Assembly (NCBI GenBank): GCA_000697335.1
Contig: JNEM01009958.1
Location: 1-47,509 of the forward strand
DNA: 47,509 nt
Reading direction: 5' to 3'
DNA from: Conidiobolus incongruus B7586
Taxonomy: Eukaryota
Of this stretch, positions 6,501-39,721 are shown piece by piece. The notes under the pieces were generated by a model, which had not been told where the DNA came from, did no database searches, and was given only the letters and a program-made list of their open reading frames with translations. Every line of letters begins with the position of its first letter. The first letter of the stretch is position 1. The position numbers were made by a program, and so were the translations under genes.

Positions 6501-9500
6501 CCAGTAGACAACACCCATCATCTCACTCTCTTGCAACAAACCTTGGGAGGGTGGACGAAGAAACCTCATCCTACAATCACCAGCGCAGGAAATCCTCCAT
6601 CAGTGTAGTGAGATTATTGAAAAACTTTGGATTCGGCAAGGTACCTGTCCCTGACGAAACTTCCGACAGTTACTATTCCTCTAGAAAATCCTCCGTTGAC
6701 AGGAGAGACAGCATCAACTCAGTTACAAAAACTCTAGTGGAAGAGCAGACTTCTACGAAAGATGAGGTATCGTCGCAGGATACCACCCAAATTCCTGTAA
6801 AAGAAACCAAGCCTAGGGACATTGATGGAGCATCGTCCCATCATCGCACCCGATCGGAAGATTCTGGCTTATTCAAGAGTCCATCGCCAGTATTTCACAA
6901 ACTTAATGAAGTTGATCTCAAATCTCCCAGTAGCTCCTCGGGATTGGACACTCATGTTGGGATGCGAAGCCGTGCGGGAAGCGCTCCAAGTACATCAGAG
7001 ATCAAAAAGATTTTGTGTAGATTGTGTGAAGAGCAAATCAACGAGAAAGAGTTTGAGCCGCATATTGAAGAATGTACACAAAATCAACTGGACAATATGA
7101 AGTTGTACGAGTTAGAAAATGGACTCAAAAAACTCAAATCCGAATCAATTCATACCTTTGGATTACCTGACATACCCCTTTCTCAAATTTTTGAATCACC
7201 TCGACCTATGGAACAAGACAAACCAATGATTGATTTCATGAATTTAATGAACCGAACACTCAAAGTACTGTCATTTCAAGATTTATCAGAAATTACTATG
7301 ATTCACTCGTTAAAAGATATCAAAATAGAAACTAAGATGCTTTTAGGGAATCAGCAATCTCTACTTTCCGGCTTTAACTCTGAAGTACAAAATTCTGAAA
7401 AGAAAGAATCAAGGAATGAGTATCAAGATCAGTATCAACAGATGGAGAAATTCGACAAACTGATTGGTCAGATTCATGATTTGATTAAGCGGTATCAAGA
7501 CAGGTTAGGCATTAGAAGTACACTTACCATCAACACCAATATACGTCCTGAGCCATTGTCCAAGCAATGTAACTACAATAAGAACAGAGATAGTGGCTCG
7601 TTTGGCAAGGCATTCAGACTGAACATTCCTCAGCCTAATTCGATGGGAAGAACAGCATCGGGAACTCCTCCAACGGGAAGAAAGGGATCGATAACTTTAG
7701 AAATGCTTAAAATGTATCGTTCGCCATCTTCACCTTCTTCCAACAATTCCAATAGCTTCAAGGAGAATTTTATTGAGCGATCAATTGGCAAGGTGAGAAA
7801 TTTAGGCAGTCTTACTCCCAGATCTTCCCGTGGCTCTATCTCCAAAGAGTTCCAGCCCAGTAGCCAAGATCAAGAGAATGGATTCGCCGCATCCACTAAA
7901 AAGATGATGTCATTACTTGCAGGCGTTTTGAAAAAGGGTCAGCACGATGCTGGTATCAGCTGTGAACAGAGTCCACCTGCTCAACCTTATGGTAGCAAAC
8001 GAGCTAGGGGAGATACTTCTAGGAGGGATACAGCGGATTCAGCACAATCTACCATTGGCACGAATGGCACTACCAAATCGACACCTAAGAAAACTAAAAT
8101 CCCTGGAATTGAAGACTTTGAAATCATCAAACCCATTTCCAGAGGTGCTTTTGGTAAAGTGTATTTAGCTCGTAAAAAGACCACCAAGGATCTATTTGCC
8201 ATCAAGGCCATTCGAAAGGATGACGTCGTTCGCAAGAATATGGTCCAACAAGTGATGATGGAGAGAAAAGTGATGGCATTGGCATCCATTCCCTATGTAG
8301 TATCTATGTTCTTTGCCTTTCACTCCAAATCCTATCTCTTTTTAGTGATGGAATATTTGATTGGTGGTGATCTTTCCTCCCTATTACAAGTATATGGATG
8401 CTTCGAAGAAGATATGGCTCGTTTCTACATTGCAGAAACCACTCTAGCGCTGAATTATTTGCACGAGAACGGCGTTGTTCATCGTGATTTGAAGCCTGAT
8501 AACATTTTGATTGATCACACTGGACATATTAAATTGACAGATTTTGGACTTTCTCGTATTGTTGTGAATGATCAAACTTCTGGAGGGATTGGCCCAAGTC
8601 ATCATGTCCACAATTTTAACACTAGTCACTTAAATACAAAGCAAGAGGTACATCATAATGGCCATAATATTAAACATGAACCCCATACACCCAAGCGTCC
8701 TCCCAGTAATCGCGAACTTCTAGGTACACCTGATTATTTGGCACCTGAGTTACTGTTAGGTTCTTCTCATGGCTCTCCTGTAGACTGGTGGGCAGTTGGT
8801 GTATGCCTTTTTGAATTCCTCGTTGGTTATCCACCATTTTCTGACGAATCTCCAGAATTGATCTTTCGCAATATTTTGAATCATGAAATTCAGTGGCCTC
8901 CAGTCGATCCAGATGCATCATATTTCAGTACTGAGAGTGAGGATTTGATCAAAAACTTACTACAACCAGATCCTTCGAAGCGACTTCAAAGGAATCAAGT
9001 TCCTTTGCATTCTTTCTTCAAAGGGATGGACTTTGATAAACTGCATGAGATTGAACCACCATTTATCCCACGTCCCGAAGATGTATGCGATACCAGCTAT
9101 TTTGAGAGCAGAAACACCCGCCCTGATATTGTCAATTTGAATAAGAGTTCTGTGCATCAGATCATTGATGGTCATCAAGAAGATTCCTTCTTCCATGGTG
9201 AAGTTGAATTACAAGAGAATAATACTGATAATAACATTGTTTCTCAAACGAACACTTCGACACCAAGTCAATGCACTCATTCAGAAACTGATTCAAATAT
9301 AATTTCTCAAGTCCCTTCTATTAACAGTAGATCAAGTATGAATAACATTCAACCCAGTTTACAAAGCACAGATGGCAATACATTATTTACCTCCCCTGAG
9401 ATATCCACACAAATGTTTGATTCACCATCACCAGGCAATCCATATCCAGAAATTGAAATCATGGATCTTTCCAAAGCACCATCAATGCTCTTTGACCAAG

Positions 9501-22214: not shown

Positions 22215-22682
22215 TTAAGGATTAAATATATATTTACAATTAGAGTGGTTAATATCACCGATTATTTCATAGTTGACATTATTCAATACCCCTGTACCAT
22301 CAATTGAACTAGGATTTAATTTTTGCATATATTCTATCGATATTTCAACACCTGGACTAGTTTTTATATCAGCAATAATCACATCAACCCAAGTGTCATT
22401 TAGTTGAATTCGAATACAGTCACCACAATTCAGGTTGGAATCTGGTCCAGCTGCTGCAACCCCTTGAAATTGTTTAATATTTTCAGCCATCAACTTAGTA
22501 TTATATGATGCACACGCTAATGGATATGTACTAAATAATTCAATGGAATTGGATCTTGTCATGACTCCCGTATAATCATGTGATTTTAAACTAGTGATCT
22601 TTGGGCTCAATGCATTTTCATCATTGGAAGGAGACGATGATATTAATTGCAGTATTATAAACCAATATATTATCAATACCAT
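22215..22682 (-). CDS. Small secreted RlpA-like double-psi beta-barrel (expansin/loosenin-like) protein, 155 aa
   Basis: Hydrophobic signal peptide; AC..., AAAG...NCGDCIRIQ...VDVIIAD...GVEIS pattern resembles the DPBB core (CG.C..V...V.V.V.D). Confidence 0.6.
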   Translation of the reverse strand: MVLIIYWFIILQLISSSPSNDENALSPKITSLKSHDYTGVMTRSNSIELFSTYPLACASYNTKLMAENIKQFQGVAAAGPDSNLNCGDCIRIQLNDTWVDVIIADIKTSPGVEISIEYMQKLNPSSIDGTGVLNNVNYEIIGDINHSNCKYIFNP

Positions 22683-25794: not shown

Positions 25795-27819
25795 CTAGGC
25801 AGCAAATCGACGAGTCCATTCAATGGTTTCATTCATGAAACGGATCAAGTTAGCAGAGCCACTGACACCGTGACCTTCGTCGGGGAAGTAAAGGAGACGG
25901 GAGGGAATACCCTTGCGTTGGAGGACAGTGAAAGCAGCCAAGGCTTCACCATCGACGATACGATAGTCATTTTGACCTTGAACAACAAGAGTGGGAGTCT
26001 TCCAATCCTTGATGTAAGTGTCAGGAGACCATCTTCTGTAGGAGGCTTCATTTTCCATGGGAGTACCCTTGAAATCGTATTCGGGGAACCAGAGCTCATC
26101 AGTAGAGAAGTAGGTGTGGTAGGTATCCATCTTGCCATTGCACATGACGATACACTTGAAGCGGTCTGTATGACCATTAATCCAGTTACCCATGTAACCA
26201 CCATAAGAGGTACCAACAGAGCAAGCTCTATTGCCATCAGCCCAAGAGTATTTGGCGAGGAGGGCATCTAAACCTTTCATCAAATCTTCATAAGGATAAG
26301 TACCCCAGTTATCACGGATGGAGTCAGTGAAGTTTTGACCGAAACCAGTGGAACCATGGAAGTTAACAGCGAGGACAATACGACCAGCACCAGTGTGAAC
26401 GTTGAAGTTGTGGTTGGTGGACCAGCGATCTAAATAAGCACCTTGGGGACCACCGTGGATGATCAAACTGATGGGATATTTCTTAGAGGGATCGAAATTG
26501 ATGGGCTTAAGAAGAAAAGCATGAACTTTTTCATTGAAGGCACCATTAAACCAGAAATCTTCAACATCAGCCAAATAGATACCCTTGAATTTTTCTTCAT
26601 TAGCCTTGGTCAATTGAGTAAATTCAGAGCCATCTAATTTGACAGTGTAAATATCATTGGGGTAGGCAATGGAGGAAACGGAGAAGACAAGCTTATCATC
26701 ACCAAGAAGGGAGACACCGGCGGCGGAGCGATCTTTGGTTAAAGCTTTAACATCGCCGGAAGCAACATCAATGGAGAAAATCTTAGTTCTGGCGATATCT
26801 TCAGCAGTAACAATGAGCTTAGAGCTATCAGCTGAAAAAACTAAAGAAGTTGGACTGCGATCCCATTTAGGGGCCAAGAATTTCTTAGTCTTGTCCTTCA
26901 AGCTATAGAGAACAATGCTGTTCTTGTCAGATTCGTACTTAGGGGTGTTCATTTGTAACCAAGCGAGGGTCTTACCATCCTTGGAAAAGGTGGGTTGAGT
27001 AGCAGCACCATGATTGTCCAAGGTCAAATCTTGAGGAGCAGCGGAACCATCGATGGGAACGAGGTAGATGTTTTGTTCGGTTTCCCAGGCTTGATCAACA
27101 CCAGGCTTCTTAGCACCGAAGGCAACAGTGTTGCCATCAGGTGAGATTTGGTAATCGCTGGGACCACCAGTGTAATCAACAGGAGATTCCAAACCAGTAT
27201 CCTTTAACAAGTTGACAGCTTTTCCAACTTGCTTCAAACCAATAGGGCTAGAAGCATCCTTGTCCAATTGAACAGAGAACAATTGGGTAAGACCACGCTT
27301 GACAAAGTGATCCCAGTGTCTGACCATTAATTGATCATAAACTAAAGCTGTATCAAATTTCTTATCTGGATCAGGATTATCGACGTAAGCAGCGGCAACA
27401 ATGCGATTGGTGGCAGCATTATATTTGAAAGAAGAGATAGGATAAGTAATGTTGACTAAGAGTTCAGGAGTAGCCTTCTTGACAGTATCATAGACAAAAA
27501 TGGCTGATTTGGAAACGAAAGCAAGTTGAGTATCGCTGATCCAAGAAGCACCAGAAGCAGTTCCATTGATGGAAGCAGTGTGAGAAACTGATTGTTTAGT
27601 TTCAAGATCCATTAGATAGTATTCGGTGGGCTTCTTGTTGGTCTTGGGATTATACTCAGCCTTAGAGTAGAAAATGGACTTACCATTAGGACTGGGCAAA
27701 CCAGCACCAACAGAGACAACAGTAGCCAAATCAGTAGGTGTGAAAGGGCGAAGTTGAGGTTTAGTAGGGTAATCGGCACTTAATAAGCCAATCAAGAATA
27801 TAGAAAATAAATAATTCAT
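25795..27819 (-). CDS. DPP5: Secreted dipeptidyl-peptidase V (S9 family serine peptidase), 674 aa, single exon
   Basis: Signal peptide; YDQLMVRHWDHF; beta-propeller repeats; IIHGGPQG, NFHGSTGFGQ, nucleophile GTSYGG, catalytic Asp (QNDYRI) and His (DEGHG). Confidence 0.92.
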   Translation of the reverse strand: MNYLFSIFLIGLLSADYPTKPQLRPFTPTDLATVVSVGAGLPSPNGKSIFYSKAEYNPKTNKKPTEYYLMDLETKQSVSHTASINGTASGASWISDTQLAFVSKSAIFVYDTVKKATPELLVNITYPISSFKYNAATNRIVAAAYVDNPDPDKKFDTALVYDQLMVRHWDHFVKRGLTQLFSVQLDKDASSPIGLKQVGKAVNLLKDTGLESPVDYTGGPSDYQISPDGNTVAFGAKKPGVDQAWETEQNIYLVPIDGSAAPQDLTLDNHGAATQPTFSKDGKTLAWLQMNTPKYESDKNSIVLYSLKDKTKKFLAPKWDRSPTSLVFSADSSKLIVTAEDIARTKIFSIDVASGDVKALTKDRSAAGVSLLGDDKLVFSVSSIAYPNDIYTVKLDGSEFTQLTKANEEKFKGIYLADVEDFWFNGAFNEKVHAFLLKPINFDPSKKYPISLIIHGGPQGAYLDRWSTNHNFNVHTGAGRIVLAVNFHGSTGFGQNFTDSIRDNWGTYPYEDLMKGLDALLAKYSWADGNRACSVGTSYGGYMGNWINGHTDRFKCIVMCNGKMDTYHTYFSTDELWFPEYDFKGTPMENEASYRRWSPDTYIKDWKTPTLVVQGQNDYRIVDGEALAAFTVLQRKGIPSRLLYFPDEGHGVSGSANLIRFMNETIEWTRRFAA

Positions 27820-32523: not shown

Positions 32524-34134
32524 ATGAGATGGTGCTTAATAATATTGTTAGTACTATTTCGATCTCATTTATCGTTGGGATATTGGGAAGAATTCCAGTT
32601 CAGAATGAATTTAAACTGTCAAAATATTAGTAGTCAACATTATTCTAACTGTTTAAACTATCAATTCGACAATGTTGTTAAGGCCAACGCCATTGTTAAT
32701 AACGATATACTATCGACTAGTGTAACAAATTCTCCGAATAAGATTCAAAATTGGTATATTTTAGATCTATTATTAGCTTGCAATGCTCAAGTGACTAGAG
32801 ATCAAGTGAATGGAATAGTCAGCAGGAATCACAAAAATGAGTTGATGGGATATTTACAATGTTCCAATTCATGTCCAATCCATAATCAACTCTTATTAGC
32901 CAATTTAACTAGTATCAAATACTTCATGGTACTCGTTGAAGACTGTGAAAGTAAAATTTCAAAGAATTTTATCAATGATCAAGTATTTATTCCGATATCA
33001 GGACAATTGAATTTCAATAATTATTGGAGTAATCTTGTCAACCACACTATCAAGTATAACCTTGATATTAATAACTCTAACTTAGTTCTTGTTACTCTAA
33101 ATCCATATCAATCTAATTCACTAACATTGATCTTGGTGATCATTCTAATTTGCTTTATTGTGATTTTGATAGTGTTTTTAGGTTTTTTAGTTAGGTTTAG
33201 GAAAAAATCAGACCAAGAGTACTCATCCGTTGATATTATTGGCGATTATCATATCATGCACAATAACGGTGCCAATAATTGGATATCAGCGTCCCTGGAC
33301 GACAAGGAAATCAAAACACATACAGAAATTGTGGAATCCCGCCCGAAGAGTTTGGAGGAAGAGATGAATGAAGTGTTTGAAGAGTTGAGCAACAAGTCCA
33401 AGTCTTTAGGAGAGGCAGAGAATGAGCGCAGCAATGTTCCAATAACCGAACAACCATCAATTGGTAGATCGGAATATAGTATTAATATTAATCAATTGAT
33501 CAACCCTGACAGTTCTAATGCCTCATCATCGCCAGATTCTGCTACTATTCCAAAGCATTTTTCATTTCGGTCACCCTATAACTCTTCACTTGGATCGCCA
33601 CCGAAAGAGTCGTCGATGAACTTCCCTAGGATGGTTGCCAAAATAGATCCAATTCCACCAAGATCTATACCCTTACAATCCTCGAATGAGCGATTGCAGC
33701 CTCCTTACAAACATACGACCTGTTCCATCTGCTTCTTGGATTATCGCTATGGCGAGAAGGTTCGAAGTTTGACATGTGGACATAGCTTCCACTTGGGCTG
33801 TATCGATCAATGGTTAACCAAATATATTTCCATCAGATGTCCGGTATGCTACAAAGATCTCAAGTTAAGTATGCTAGGCGGCAGTAGTTCGAGTCTTCCA
33901 ATGAAATCCCCCCAGAGCAGCAATCCTATCCCAAGTAAAGAATTTCTGCCATCGACGTTGAAAAACACTGGGGCGGGTTTAAGAGTTGCAAACACCGAAT
34001 CAAATACATTAGGAGGTTCAAATATTATAGAGGGCCACAGTTACCATTCGAGTAATAGTAGCCAATTGTCGCTGCCAGCACCTCACGAAAGGAGATATCA
34101 TAAATTGGACAGATCGCAACAGTTGAACAATTAG
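32524..34134 (+). CDS. Type I membrane RING-H2 E3 ubiquitin ligase, 536 aa
   Basis: Signal peptide, Cys-containing lumenal region, TM helix LILVIILICFIVILIVFLGFLV followed by RFRKK, RING-H2 CSICFLDY..LTCGHSFHLGCIDQWL..CPVC. Confidence 0.88.
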   Translation: MRWCLIILLVLFRSHLSLGYWEEFQFRMNLNCQNISSQHYSNCLNYQFDNVVKANAIVNNDILSTSVTNSPNKIQNWYILDLLLACNAQVTRDQVNGIVSRNHKNELMGYLQCSNSCPIHNQLLLANLTSIKYFMVLVEDCESKISKNFINDQVFIPISGQLNFNNYWSNLVNHTIKYNLDINNSNLVLVTLNPYQSNSLTLILVIILICFIVILIVFLGFLVRFRKKSDQEYSSVDIIGDYHIMHNNGANNWISASLDDKEIKTHTEIVESRPKSLEEEMNEVFEELSNKSKSLGEAENERSNVPITEQPSIGRSEYSININQLINPDSSNASSSPDSATIPKHFSFRSPYNSSLGSPPKESSMNFPRMVAKIDPIPPRSIPLQSSNERLQPPYKHTTCSICFLDYRYGEKVRSLTCGHSFHLGCIDQWLTKYISIRCPVCYKDLKLSMLGGSSSSLPMKSPQSSNPIPSKEFLPSTLKNTGAGLRVANTESNTLGGSNIIEGHSYHSSNSSQLSLPAPHERRYHKLDRSQQLNN

Positions 34135-34206
34135 TTTGATGTTGAACCTGCAGTAATAATGATTTAAGTTTATTAATTAAAAAAATACAATAAAATACAA
34201 TGTGAA

Positions 34207-36324
34207 TTAGTAGGATTCGTCCTGTTCTTTGACTTCGAGCCTTTCCTTTTCGTCTCGTTTCTTTTCGATACAGTATAATGTAAGTACAATGGAGCCTAAG
34301 CCGATGAGGCTAGCTACTAAAGTTCCAAGTACCCATTTCGCATGTTTTGAGAGGTTGATTAACATTTCACGGGTCCATGTTGACGGATCCGAACTGCCAT
34401 TTGGCTGATACGGAATGATGATCAATTGGGAGTTAGGGATAATTCCGGACCATGTGAAATGGCAATGTTTTTGAATGCGACTGACACTAACTATCAAAGT
34501 ACTCAAATAGTTGTTCGTTCTTCCAAGTCCTACCAAATTGTAAGGTGTCAGTAATGCGTGATTTGAAGTTTGGCCCAATTGAGCAATCATTGAACATCTC
34601 TCATTCCCATCCGTATCACTAACAATATATTTAATAGTACCACCTACATAATTCACTCCGTAAGGTTTGACATTGTTTGCGGAAGGCTCAGGACAGTTCT
34701 GAAGACATACGCCATTTGAAATCAAAGTCTTTAAAAAGAAGGCATCATTCAATTCTTCAACGTGCCAGCTCAGTAAAGACGATTGGGAGTCTAGTGGAAT
34801 TTGTAAAATATCGAACTTACCTCGATTTCTCATATCGAAAAAAATCGACTCCATTTTGGATGTTGAGAATGCCGAAGGCAGCTGGTTTCCGGATTGATAT
34901 TCAAATGTTCTTTCACCATTCTTGACACTGTCGGCAGTACAGGTGCCGGCTGTGCATGGAACGCTAATCAGAATCATGTGAATGAATTTCTCCTGCTTTG
35001 AGTTAGTTAGAGTGATCAAAATATCTGGATATCCGTCTAGATTAAAATCACCCAATCTAAGAGGAATTGGCAGAGAAGTACCCTTAAAGTTCACGTCTTC
35101 GTCAAGTATCCAGTGCAAGCCTTTCAAGTTCTTTTAGCCACTTTTTTCTATCATTTTTTGATATTGACCTTGACATACCCAGCCCTCTTCTCGTCAAAGT
35201 CAAATTTAAAATTATTGTCTGGTGAACATAACTGAGAAGCCCATTGACAGTTAGTAGTCTGAGTAGGTGTACAAAGTTCCTGCTGTTGATTATAAACAAT
35301 ATGAATGGTGCAACCTTCCTTATCATCACATGTCGAAAATATCATATCTGCACTACTCTTACCATTAATGTCACCAAAACTGATAGCCTTCGTACCTTTT
35401 GGAAGTTCGTGGCGCGTTTTCAATTCGAACTGATTTTCAGTATTGGTATTGATCCAAATTTGGAATGCTTTACTATCTTCATCCTTCTCCAATTCGCAAG
35501 TGAAGAATAGATCAGGAGCGCAGTCTCCATTAAAATCGATAAAACTGTTGGAGTGGAAGGGATGTAATTTGCATACTTTGTCTGAAGGGTTTTTGGATTG
35601 TAATGCTATTCTGAAGTAATATGATTAGTTAAATAAAAATGAAAAGCGGATAGATACTTACAACTTGAATGATTTAGACTTATCATTATCATTAGGCTGC
35701 ATTTAATCAGTCCAAATAGTGAGTATAGATTTGTCCTTAGTATTCAATTCACTAGAATATCCAATCAAATCAGGTTTCATATCGCCGTTGAGATCAGCTA
35801 CAAATGGTAGGATATGAATAGCACCTGGCAAACTAATCGGATCAGAATCTAAAATATATTTTGAACATTTAATTGATACAATTTTTGAAAATAATAAATA
35901 CTTAAAACTTACCAAAATGACTCAATCAATCTCCCAAAAACAAATCCATTTCAATTACCTTATCCTTCTTGCCTTTAGCATCTTTATCTCCATAAAACAC
36001 CAAAATATCCAATCGACCATCATAATTAAAATCCATAGTCACAACATCCAAAATTATTTTATTCAACTTCAACTTCATATTGTTTTTAGTAATGGAGAAT
36101 TGTCTAGTTTCTATATTCCATACTCCCAACTCGATCTCATTTTGACTGTTGTTGAGTAGGATAATGTCTAGGGATTTGTCGCTGTTAATGTCCCCAAGAT
36201 TTTGAATGCGATATCCGACGAGATGTTCAAAGCCTACGATTTTCTTGTGAAATTTTGGATTTATGGAATGATATATTGATATCATGGATATTAGTATTAT
36301 ATACAAATTAATTACTAATTTCAT
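34207..36324 (-). pseudogene. ITFG1: ITFG1/TIP/LINKIN homolog (FG-GAP repeats plus C-terminal TM), disrupted; exons 36324-35913, 35848-35662, 35610-34207
   Basis: FG-GAP motifs GDINSDKSLDI, MDFNYDGRLDIL, ADLNGDMKPDL, HSNSFIDFNGDCAPDL, GDFNLDGYPDIL; DAFFLK, GLGRTNNY, IIPNSQLIIIP, TM then EKKRDEKER. In-frame stops at 35926-35928 (TGA), 35703-35705 (TAA) and 35134-35136 (TAA); frameshift near the A6 run at 35154-35159. Confidence 0.8.
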
Positions 36325-36328
36325 ATTT

Positions 36329-37474
36329 TCATTTATCTATTGAATTGGATTGAAATCTTAAAGCTTCTGCACTTAATCTGATCCCCAGAGCTGGTTGCAA
36401 CGAGGGGCTACGTTCCCAGTCAGTATGCCTTAGCAGATGAGTGTCAAATAACTTGGAGGGATTTTCGAAATATGTATCCGAATAGTACTCTTGGACATCA
36501 GGCAATACATACACAAAGCAATCTGGCCTGGGGTTATCTGGAAAGTATTTGCAATTTTGGTCATCCATGTAAAACTTTCGGTCTAACTGATCAAGTTTAT
36601 CTGCAACATGTGTGTTATTAGCAGCAAGTGCCTCCTGATAAGTTGCTTCATCAGCTGGTATATCTAGAGAATCATAAAGCTTGTTGTATCCAGCTATGGC
36701 ACATACTCGTCCAACTAGAATACTTAATTTCGGAAACTTTTTTACAATCTCAATGCATGTTGATTCTGAAGGTATATGTGGGTACCAGATGCAGTACGGA
36801 TCGATATCAAACTCTGGAACGATGTTGTTCATAATCAACGTGTTTGCAACGGTTCTAGAAATAACAGGGGACTTCATCATGTCTGTACGCCCCTGACAAT
36901 ATAAAGCAAAGTCCAAGTTAGTAATTACACCATGGGAGATGTATAAATCGAATCTTTTTATATCGAATTTCCACTTGTTAACAGCATCAATATGTCCATG
37001 GTAGCACGCATAGTTGACAAGCATAGTCATGTCGTCCCACACAAAGCGCGGAAGCTTTCCAGATATGTAGAGACAAACATACTTGATGCTAGTATTGTAG
37101 CTGACAGGATACCATTCATTTTTTGAACTTGTGTCTGTCGTATCAATATTGTACCATTCCGACACTTCCTGGGGTGGAAAGCTGATTTCACTAGCGTCAT
37201 CCATCGCAACGTATTTATGCTCAGCTTTTGACAGCTCATCAAAAAGTGGCAGTTTGCGAACATAAGCTTCTACTATAATGTTGACTTCAGGTAATACAGA
37301 AAGAAGCTTGTACGCTTGCATGTAACCACTTCTAACGCATGCACGTCCAAGAAGATACTTATCGGATTCATCCACTTCTCCATTCTGAATCTGTTGGCAT
37401 ATATTTTCTTCTGGTGGAAGGCGTAATCTAAGTTTTGCCCAATACTTTCTAGGTTTAGAATACTTAAACACCAT
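36329..37474 (-). CDS. Intronless 381-aa protein of unknown function with two internal repeats (P..W...P.E..C..I......GR.C...GY...Y..L....E....EA)
   Basis: Uninterrupted ORF; repeat 1 KYLLGRACVRSGYMQAYKLLSVLPEVNIIVEA, repeat 2 PYCIWYP..SILVGRVCAIAGYNKLYDSLDIPADEATYQEA. Confidence 0.75.
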   Translation of the reverse strand: MVFKYSKPRKYWAKLRLRLPPEENICQQIQNGEVDESDKYLLGRACVRSGYMQAYKLLSVLPEVNIIVEAYVRKLPLFDELSKAEHKYVAMDDASEISFPPQEVSEWYNIDTTDTSSKNEWYPVSYNTSIKYVCLYISGKLPRFVWDDMTMLVNYACYHGHIDAVNKWKFDIKRFDLYISHGVITNLDFALYCQGRTDMMKSPVISRTVANTLIMNNIVPEFDIDPYCIWYPHIPSESTCIEIVKKFPKLSILVGRVCAIAGYNKLYDSLDIPADEATYQEALAANNTHVADKLDQLDRKFYMDDQNCKYFPDNPRPDCFVYVLPDVQEYYSDTYFENPSKLFDTHLLRHTDWERSPSLQPALGIRLSAEALRFQSNSIDK

Positions 37475-37495
37475 TTTCCACCTTGGATTGAAATC
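36345..37495 (-). mobile_element. 1125-bp insertion (36358-37482) flanked by an exact 13-bp direct repeat TTGGATTGAAATC (36345-36357 and 37483-37495), probable target-site duplication
   Basis: The repeat copies coincide with both ends of the orphan ORF and with the switch to AT-rich flanks; no TIR, LTR or poly(A) visible. Confidence 0.75.
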
Positions 37496-39721
37496 AATCT
37501 TGGGAGAGAATTTATTTTAGTTGGAGAAATTGAATAATTATGGGCCAATTTATACATGAAATATATTTTGGCAATTGTTTAATTTTAATTGGTTTAAAAT
37601 GGCGATTTTGAAAATTAATAACTTCATTTAATAATAAATAGCATATATTAGTTGTTGGACGATAAAAATTATTATAACACCAGTGATGAGAGGTATTTTA
37701 ATAATGGTTATTTATTCAGTAATGATTTGAAATACCAGGAAGTTGGAAGTTCGAATGTCAGTACCAACTTTTAAAAATCAAATCACTGCTCAAAAATTCC
37801 AAAATTGAAAATTAAGCAAATATTGCTTGATAAAATTGTTAAATCTATGAATGTATTCAAATAATTAGGAATGTTCAAATTAATATATATATATATACCA
37901 AAAATTAATACAATATCTATAACAAAATTATTTTTTTTGAATAATTATAAAAAGCTACTATATCATTACCAATTTCCTATTGTTTTGAATATGTTATTCA
38001 GTTTTGAATTGGATAAATTCTATAAATGAATACCAATTGGTCTGATTAAGTTGTATTTTTTGAATAATATAACTCAACATTGGTATGGAAGGTAATTTTA
38101 TTGATACCCAATATATATATTGATGCTATTACTCTATTCTATCAACGAATATTAGCATAATTCTTAAAGTTTGAATTTTATTTAATCAAATTTCATTCAA
38201 ATTCCAAATTGGACAAAATTCCACCTCATATTAATTGAAAGGAAAATTATGTGAATTTTACTATTTCAAATATTTCAATTTTTTTATTTTTGTTCAAATC
38301 TATAATTGTCATTGTTATCTTATAATCATCCCACTTTTTTGTTGAAAATGAGTTTATATGTTATTACTTAATTTGGAAAATGTTTCGTAAAATCGTACAG
38401 CTCAAAATATATTTTAAAATAATGATAGTTTATAATATAGAAATCAATTATTGATATTATAATAAACTTACTGATTCAACCAACCATTTCAATCATACAA
38501 ATTAAATATAAAAATAATAAAAATATATTTCAATTTTACCAATATCAACAATGAATATATCCTAATTAATTACCACTAGAATGGCGAGATCACCAAATTC
38601 AGGTTGGAATTGTTTTTAGTGCTTCAAAATGGTACCTAAAATAATGTAAACTGAAACAAGTTTAAAACTTGAATCATTTATATTGAAATTATTGTTTCTT
38701 AATCTTTTGTTACGAATTGATTGGATCTTCCCTTTTTTATCCATTAGCTTAACTCGATAATTGATAGTATCAGTTATTGGTAGTAATATCGAAATATGGT
38801 GGTGGTGTAATGGTTAGTTATTGTATAGCCATTATAGATATTGATAGAATAATTTATATATTTTGAATAGAGTTTAATCGGAAATATATATTTTCAGATC
38901 GTAAACTATATCTGATCTAAATGAATAATACTGAATTTTAATGATACACTCAATCATAATATTGATCTAGTTTGAAATAATTTTAGATTTGAACTATAAT
39001 AAAAGATAAGGTTACAAAATAACTATATTAATTGATTATCATTGAAGCTATGAAAGTAATATTATAGCATCAATGTATGTATTAAAGAGATGCTGATTAC
39101 ACTCTATAATCAAAATTATAGGAATTAAATTTGAGATCAATTGTTAAATTACTTTTGTATTCAAAAAGGATTTGGAATTTTTTGTTATTAATAATTTGAG
39201 TTTCAATTGATACACTGCAATTTTAAATTAATAATCAAAAATTTATAAAAATTTTATTTCAAAATATTACTACCATTTTGTAGAATAAATCATTCAAAAA
39301 TATTTATATTGAAATAATTGATATTTCGAAGCATATAAAATATATATTACAATATTTCAAATTTTTATATCATAGTAATATATTTGAGTTTAAAGTTACT
39401 ACCATCTTTTACTTAAACAATTATTAATTTTGAACCAAATTGACCAATTAAAGTCAACCTCAGTTCGAAATTACCTTTGGCCATGATTGGCTAATGAAAT
39501 CTAACCGAGACTAAGTAATCCAATTAAATTAATTTTTCCTATCAAGATTTTCATTGTTTTTGGGATTAGATCATGGTTTTATTTTAAAACTTGAAAAATT
39601 GGTCATTATATATATAAGAAAAATATGATGAAGATTTGGGGATGGATATAAATTATCATAATAGTTCCCAAAGCTGATAATTTTTGAAATTTTTTGTTGA
39701 TAACTTGTAATATATCTAAGG

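Follow-up and report, generated by a model that had tools for sequence, protein, structure and literature searches.

An intact, predicted killer-toxin immunity gene between 13-bp direct repeats in the leader of a decayed ITFG1 copy of Conidiobolus incongruus

Introduction

How does an intronless gene come to lie between two identical 13-mers, 20 nt upstream of the start codon of the housekeeping gene ITFG1, what does it encode, and could it work there? Nuclear capture of immunity genes from cytoplasmic killer-type linear plasmids (VLEs) is known (PMC4431711, PMC13556262, PMC13442484, accessible passages), and immunity genes are given as the largest class of NUPAVs (PMC4431711, accessible passages). 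Whether such captures ever work is stated as an open question in the available text of PMC11848437. VLEs are present in Zoopagomycota, and VLE-type DNA-polymerase contigs are reported for Conidiobolus and Entomophthora assemblies; identifiable immunity genes outside Dikarya are confined, in the accessible part of that survey, to four Coemansia isolates and Kappamyces (PMC13348850).

The window analysed here is a stretch of 47,509 nt from Conidiobolus incongruus B7586 (contig JNEM01009958.1). An initial annotation, made from its letters, described a foreign gene or gene fragment pasted between the ITFG1 promoter and start codon. In this study, we show that the insertion is present in one of two copies of the locus and that its ends coincide with the ends of a gene. 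We assign the gene, very probably, to the killer-toxin immunity (Imm) family and weigh the routes by which it may have arrived.

Results

The insert and its flanks

The 13-mer TTGGATTGAAATC occurs exactly at 36345-36357 and at 37483-37495, a unique pair in the window, and identity ends at 13 bp on both sides. Between the two copies lies an insert of 1,125 bp on the minus strand (36358-37482, GC 0.40), which begins GGTGGAAA-ATG and consists of an 8-nt leader and 372 codons of an intronless, Imm-like gene. It sits 20 nt upstream of the ITFG1 start codon. The ORF (37474-36329, minus, 381 aa) is open along its full length. The insert has no stop of its own; the repeat and the host leader supply, wholly or in part, the last nine codons of the ORF, whose TGA ends 4 nt short of the ITFG1 ATG (36324). 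Repeats, leader, open frame and borrowed stop were all reported in the initial annotation, and re-reading the coordinates bore them out. The features are as follows.

37496..37560, minus strand: host upstream region, presumed ITFG1 core promoter or leader
37483..37495, no strand: upstream copy of the target-site duplication (TSD), host DNA, defined by the exact repeat and the empty-site spacing
37413..37482, minus strand: predicted 5'-terminal hairpin, stem from insert nt 1 (GGUGGAA/UUCCACC), -20.5 kcal/mol, z -3.1
36358..37482, minus strand: insert, 1,125 bp, defined by the flanking repeats and the ORF reading
36345..36357, no strand: downstream TSD copy, whose first 2 nt (minus) complete an Arg codon common to the relative P0001, a possible 2-nt microhomology
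36329..37474, minus strand: ORF, PF28449/Imm-like, 381 aa, tail and TGA borrowed from the host, last 2-3 native codons missing
36321..36332, minus strand: 3-codon ORF (M-K-I-stop), overlapping the insert ORF stop and the ITFG1 ATG
34207..36324, minus strand: broken ITFG1 copy, exons 36324-35913, 35848-35662 and 35610-34207

When 20,000 pairs of 100-nt windows with similar GC were drawn at random, 23 shared an exact match of at least 13 nt, and 13 exact 13-mers with at least 4 G/C are repeated within the window. Since exact 13-mers recur there, the weight of this repeat rests on its position at the homology-defined ends of a gene and on the empty site. No inverted repeat pairing the insert ends was found among the 25 of 60 pairs listed, and the insert holds no poly(A), in agreement with the initial annotation. 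The insert is 60% A+T and carries neither AATAAA nor TATATA. A Pfam scan of the insert ORF returned no significant match, and the single Rfam match, at chance level, lies outside the insert.

The hairpin that opens at insert nt 1 is the strongest of 44 windows, the next best having z -1.5, and no terminator-like hairpin was found at the 3' end of the insert (z +0.8). For the first 7-8 nt of the insert, perfect inverted matches also occur at insert positions 64 and 303, the one at 303 covering the first 8 nt. The hairpin may mark the natural end of an RNA or may be filler templated by the interior of the ORF; in the latter case the A run preceding the ATG would mark the true start. A TATAAA-like word lies 72 nt upstream of the insert, and a bacterial promoter scan, whose models are those of bacteria and not of this host, gave chance level. 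The 3-codon ORF shares ATGA overlaps with both genes, a layout that could allow reinitiation.

The window has AT-rich spacers and short GTAAGT introns and looks fungal; its composition and the nearest named relative of the insert point to an early-diverging, probably entomophthoralean host. Elsewhere in the window, a small ORF of secreted type (22215-22682), with weak cerato-platanin and Barwin matches below curated cut-offs, stands alone in a long AT-rich stretch. An intronless S9 peptidase of 674 aa (25795-27819) has a GC of 0.44, higher than that of its neighbours, and its exact sequence had no match in the collection.

An empty site in a sister copy

Contigs with 0 differences bridge both insert junctions in four of four sequencing runs, all from one sample, which may be the window's source; there is no sign of the chimeric assembly that the initial annotation had considered. 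In the same four runs of the same sample, there is a second haplotype in which 41 letters separate 36328 from 37509. Removal of the insert and one repeat predicts 42 letters, so that the sister copy has the spacing of an empty site, such as the annotation had suggested seeking in related strains or species. Depth on the sister contig was 50.8/13.3/23.4/51.2 over the four runs, against 63/14.8/29.9/61.7 on the insert contig. Two contig types at similar depth in every run indicate two diverged copies of the locus, with the insert in one only. Within ITFG1 the copies show 38 differences in 407 bases and 24 in 296, and host positions 37509-37548 align to the sister copy with 2 differences in 40 nt. 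That the insertion is real is near certain, and the annotated arrangement, a foreign gene flanked by a TSD between the ITFG1 upstream region and its ATG, is upheld.

Over 34000-38300 the two copies are about 8-9% apart in coding DNA, mostly unalignable upstream and similar in depth. The sample is likely a hybrid, a polyploid or a heterokaryon.

Relatives and gene boundaries

The initial annotation called the ORF an orphan, a description that no longer applies. One relative, on a 2.7-kb contig (P0001), is 58% identical over 98%, and a second (P0002) is 47% identical. Further relatives are fungal proteins of 520-590 aa, all of them labelled PF28449 together with P0001 and P0002. Shorter matches and their clusters comprise P0010-P0012, P0017 and CONCODRAFT_72092 of Conidiobolus coronatus; all family counts are lower bounds. 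Among the close relatives identity is 38-63%, apart from one pair at 91%, and in a tree of 21 rows they form a clade with the ORF (support 100/99). The row WIN_1 in that tree, which is the first repeat of the ORF itself and sits on a very long branch, was given no weight; the tree omits P0010-P0016, P0018 and P0019, which are duplicates or lack the region.

Residues 1-377 of the 379 of P0001 align to 37471-36356, ending two bases inside the downstream repeat, and both P0001 and P0017 stop 2-3 codons past the insert's end point. From this alignment, start to end, and from the stops that follow 2-3 codons later, we conclude that the insert is one whole coding sequence; it is not a gene fragment, the other possibility in the initial annotation, given that homologues align from their first residues to its last base. 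Its ends resemble those of a transcript, the 5' end lying 8 nt ahead of the ATG and the 3' end 2-3 codons short of the native stop, as in products of target-primed reverse transcription (TPRT). As a single ORF collinear with P0001 it is intronless, a trait of NUPAVs and VLE genes.

Several relatives are broken. Homology of P0002 is lost after about residue 318, P0011 jumps frame and P0019 has an early stop, and the broken nuclear copies among the closest relatives include one in C. coronatus and two more in this sample. The two extra, diverged copies on other contigs of the sample match in pieces of 36-79 nt at 81-89%, and no long copy at 80% identity or more was found in the sample contigs examined. 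Two runs of other samples under the same species label gave 0 contigs, which does not prove absence there. The two diverged copies (records 2 and 3) match window positions 36823-37327; record 2 has 51 extra in-frame bases, a feature also of P0002, and seems to run out in AT-rich DNA around codon 218.

The predicted protein (36332-37474), like its family, is built on an internal repeat, residues ~39-95 and ~250-305 both matching one motif of the longer fungal members. Its AlphaFold model is weak (pLDDT 51.8) and all-helical. Searches of the PDB by sequence and of phages by tblastn gave no match, an atlas search with P0019 gave no usable match, and Foldseek gave 0 matches at E <= 0.001 in viral and PDB libraries. 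Ankyrin and PPR rows from Foldseek were not accepted as the identity of the ORF.

Assignment to the killer-toxin immunity family

A profile of the clade matched nine other fungal and metagenomic members with probability 99.7 and E 5.7e-26 over about 260 columns, and an HMM of those members scored the ORF at 106.7 bits, with none of 500 shuffles above 4.0. Two of the family members lie on one contig of Panaeolus papilionaceus (KAF9047763, KAF9047770), a species described as carrying a duplicated putative immunity gene (bioRxiv 10.1101/2024.10.25.620242, accessible passages). A metagenome contig (L001:1376-11518) holds a LysM-only gene, a GH18-LysM chitinase, a small secreted-type ORF (8355-8906) and an Imm-like gene, the layout of the zymocin-like cluster in the available text of the same preprint. 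This layout was seen in one of seven metagenome loci; the available DNA of the other six does not contain it, three of them lying on contigs shorter than 2.4 kb or ending inside the gene. From species, duplication and neighbours, P0004/P0013 and the gene on L001 would be Imm-P, whose proteins are themselves putative immunity proteins only. The ORF is homologous to these Pezizomycotina and Panaeolus members (bioRxiv 10.1101/2024.10.25.620242; PMC11848437; PMC13348850, accessible passages).

The motifs of the Imm-B alignment (PMC11848437 supplement, accessible part) recur in the same order in the ORF and its relatives, judged by eye and unscored. A possible link to the proven factors PaORF4, DrORF5 and KlORF3 likewise consists of by-eye, unscored motifs and identification from the literature. 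The N-terminus of the ORF is basic and, on inspection, has no hydrophobic stretch, in keeping with a non-secreted protein, and its 381 aa fall within the 353-452 aa of canonical Imm proteins (PMC13442484, accessible passages). Like most Imm-C genes the ORF stands alone, in contrast to zymocin-like clusters: among 16 window ORFs scanned, none is a GH18, LysM, toxin or chitinase gene. It also differs from the Imm-P members in its separate clade (100/99) and in being shorter than their 520-590 aa. Taken on sequence evidence, membership of the Imm family is very probable. The ORF is a predicted antitoxin, to which immunity activity may be ascribed by homology.

The ITFG1 copy behind the insert

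The initial annotation saw ITFG1 as demoted to a second cistron. This does not hold for the present copy, which has a TGA at 35928 (codon 133), a TAA at 35705 (codon 186, Gln in the sister copy), an apparent frameshift near 35160 and a TAA at 35136; as read from these lesions it is a pseudogene. Its two introns are canonical (64 and 51 nt). An automatic gene model of ITFG1 was rejected, having invented non-canonical introns to dodge the stops. Of 40 listed differences between the copies (24 more exist), 13 are intronic; the remainder affect 25 codons, 12 silently and 13 non-silently. Elsewhere in the window five long ORFs (342-972 aa) have stayed intact; the decay is thus peculiar to ITFG1, with the insertion as its simplest cause. 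With 32 upstream ATGs now before the ITFG1 start, the simplest order of events is that these silenced the copy and that decay came after.

Over its 372 codons the insert carries 0 lesions; a neutral insert of equal age should have 1.3-2.5 (P 0.08-0.27). Its intactness hints at selection without being significant, and neither is the contrast with the 3-4 lesions of ITFG1, which a recent landing before an already dead ITFG1 explains equally well.

Discussion

As the best explanation of the whole locus, to which we give about an even chance, we propose that a VLE mRNA was reverse-transcribed into the ITFG1 leader, placing an Imm-like ORF on the ITFG1 promoter. Taken singly, the plasmid donor, the RNA route and expression are each somewhat better than evens. 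The donor would be a cytoplasmic killer-type linear plasmid whose mRNA had a short leader and no poly(A). The reverse transcriptase of a non-LTR retrotransposon would have primed at a staggered nick, helped by about 2 nt of microhomology near the RNA 3' end, and would have left the 13-bp TSD. The 32 upstream ATGs would then have silenced translation of this ITFG1 copy, which decayed as the sister copy kept the function. On the promoter that would have been captured from ITFG1, host RNA polymerase II would make an mRNA in which the first long ORF encodes the Imm-like protein, and this protein would bind a secreted ribonuclease toxin on its entry into the cell. Two introns downstream of a stop can trigger mRNA decay (NMD), and the two introns past the ORF stop could thus cost the insert its mRNA.

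In yeast, the UTRs of VLE mRNAs are very short; these mRNAs carry no 3' poly(A) and end close to the stop, with 3' stem-loops at a median of 26 nt from it (PMC6831550, PMC6211774, accessible passages). Such an mRNA fits a TSD-flanked insert running from -8 to the last codons. TSD and empty site, the latter by spacing, are what a TPRT retrocopy should show; 3' poly(A), a further trait of such copies, is absent, as expected of a VLE mRNA. Other properties fit a yeast-type VLE less well. The insert begins GG, against the A on which nearly all pGKL transcripts begin (PMC6831550, PMC6211774, accessible passages), and its 60% A+T is well below the more than 75% of yeast VLEs. The same composition, with the lack of AATAAA and TATATA, speaks for the proposed reading as regards expression, since it is above 75% A+T that yeast Imm transcripts are fragmented in the nucleus (PMC4431711, accessible passages). 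Codon use of the insert correlates with that of the host at 0.50 (host genes 0.30-0.74); unlike yeast VLEs, the insert is not marked as foreign by GC and codon use. All seven Trp codons are TGG, and an origin from a mitochondrial plasmid was disfavoured on this ground. In four of four scans, viral contigs yielded no relative of the ORF, and no donor element was found there.

A substantial minority chance belongs to a functionless recent passenger, silent or degraded, that landed before an already dead ITFG1; it is compatible with any donor. The perfect TSD speaks for it, as do the preponderance of pseudogenes among the relatives, the insert's intactness, which is not significant, and the want of a cognate toxin in the window. 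Against it, decay in the window is specific to ITFG1, and, at an age as read from the ITFG1 lesions, the TSD would still have a probability of 0.4-0.6 of being perfect.

It is unlikely, though a classical NUPAV would arise in this way, that end-joining filled a staggered double-strand break with a fragment of VLE DNA; tight packing of plasmid genes, together with selection for an ATG beside the host promoter, would then explain why the insert fits the coding sequence. Break repair is the proposed route for yeast VLE integrations (PMC13556262, accessible passages), pGKL elements have almost no intergenic DNA (PMC6831550, PMC6211774, accessible passages), and the missing poly(A) and the inverted matches of the first 7-8 nt, which resemble templated filler, suit this route. 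Random DNA ends would seldom both fall within about 10 nt of the gene ends, however, and the duplication is a clean 13 bp with a target loss of at most 1 nt. The insert resembles NUPAVs in being an intronless, plasmid-type gene in a fungal chromosome with several copies in varied decay, and differs from them in being one exact, intact coding sequence of 60% A+T with a 13-bp TSD in a host leader; the NUPAV passages available describe no TSD-flanked, promoter-trapping capture.

Quite unlikely in our view is that an Imm-like gene already in the nucleus of this or a related fungus was copied, by retrocopying or horizontally, with no plasmid at this step. Host-like GC and codon use would be explained, nuclear relatives occur in C. 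coronatus and this sample, and yeasts and Pezizomycotina commonly have Imm genes standing alone in the nucleus (PMC11848437; bioRxiv 10.1101/2024.10.25.620242, accessible passages). A polymerase II mRNA should nevertheless have brought a longer UTR and poly(A), the sample contigs examined hold no close parent, and most of the nuclear relatives found are broken.

Improbable, too, is a small RNA replicon, such as a narnavirus-like segment or satellite, with an Imm-like gene, of which the insert would be an endogenised copy from the true 5' end. GG and hairpin ends are typical of yeast narnaviruses; the insert starts GG, and its hairpin, whose stem begins at nt 1, includes the AUG at +9. Repeated capture from a fast-evolving source would fit the many diverged copies, each broken in its own way, and P0001 lies on a contig of just 2.7 kb. 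Against these points, the hairpin may be a filler artefact, the four viral scans gave no relative, and Imm genes described in the accessible literature sit on DNA plasmids or chromosomes. A non-autonomous transposon family, the other reading offered in the initial annotation, is largely refuted and deserves hardly any credence: a TSD and other copies of the gene family in the sample are present, but terminal repeats and a long copy at 80% or more in the sample contigs are not, the other copies match only in pieces (36-79 nt at 81-89%), and the insert ends coincide with gene ends.

LINE-mobilised retrocopies of non-retroviral RNA exist, e.g. bornavirus N elements in mammals. The insert is like these in its TSD, within their 7-20 bp, around a transcript-sized ORF and in a source replicating outside the nucleus. 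It is unlike them in lacking poly(A) and in its presumed donor, a cytoplasmic DNA plasmid. In the literature searched, which did not take in Frank and Wolfe 2009 or the cluster paper in its journal version, there was neither a TSD-flanked, promoter-trapping capture of an Imm gene nor any Imm gene from Entomophthorales.

Returning to the reading of a reverse-transcribed VLE mRNA, we put forward, tentatively and as a possibility we would not bet on, that entomophthoralean fungi repeatedly reverse-transcribe the antitoxin mRNAs of killer elements, and that one copy was domesticated in a single step through a trapped housekeeping promoter, with loss of an ITFG1 copy and a gain of plasmid-free immunity. 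In its boldest form, if true, the donor would be an RNA replicon with a 5' hairpin, and this would be the first Imm gene outside DNA elements. A barrier has been argued to keep killer plasmids indispensable (PMC4431711, accessible passages), and this locus, a single case with an empty site for comparison, appears to be past both barriers. It is evidence for a clade of Imm proteins, and by extension probably for killer systems, in a group for which the 2026 survey had, in its accessible part, only DNA-polymerase contigs (PMC13348850). Moreover, it illustrates how a genome that is duplicated or hybrid can give up one of its copies of a housekeeping gene in exchange for a new one.
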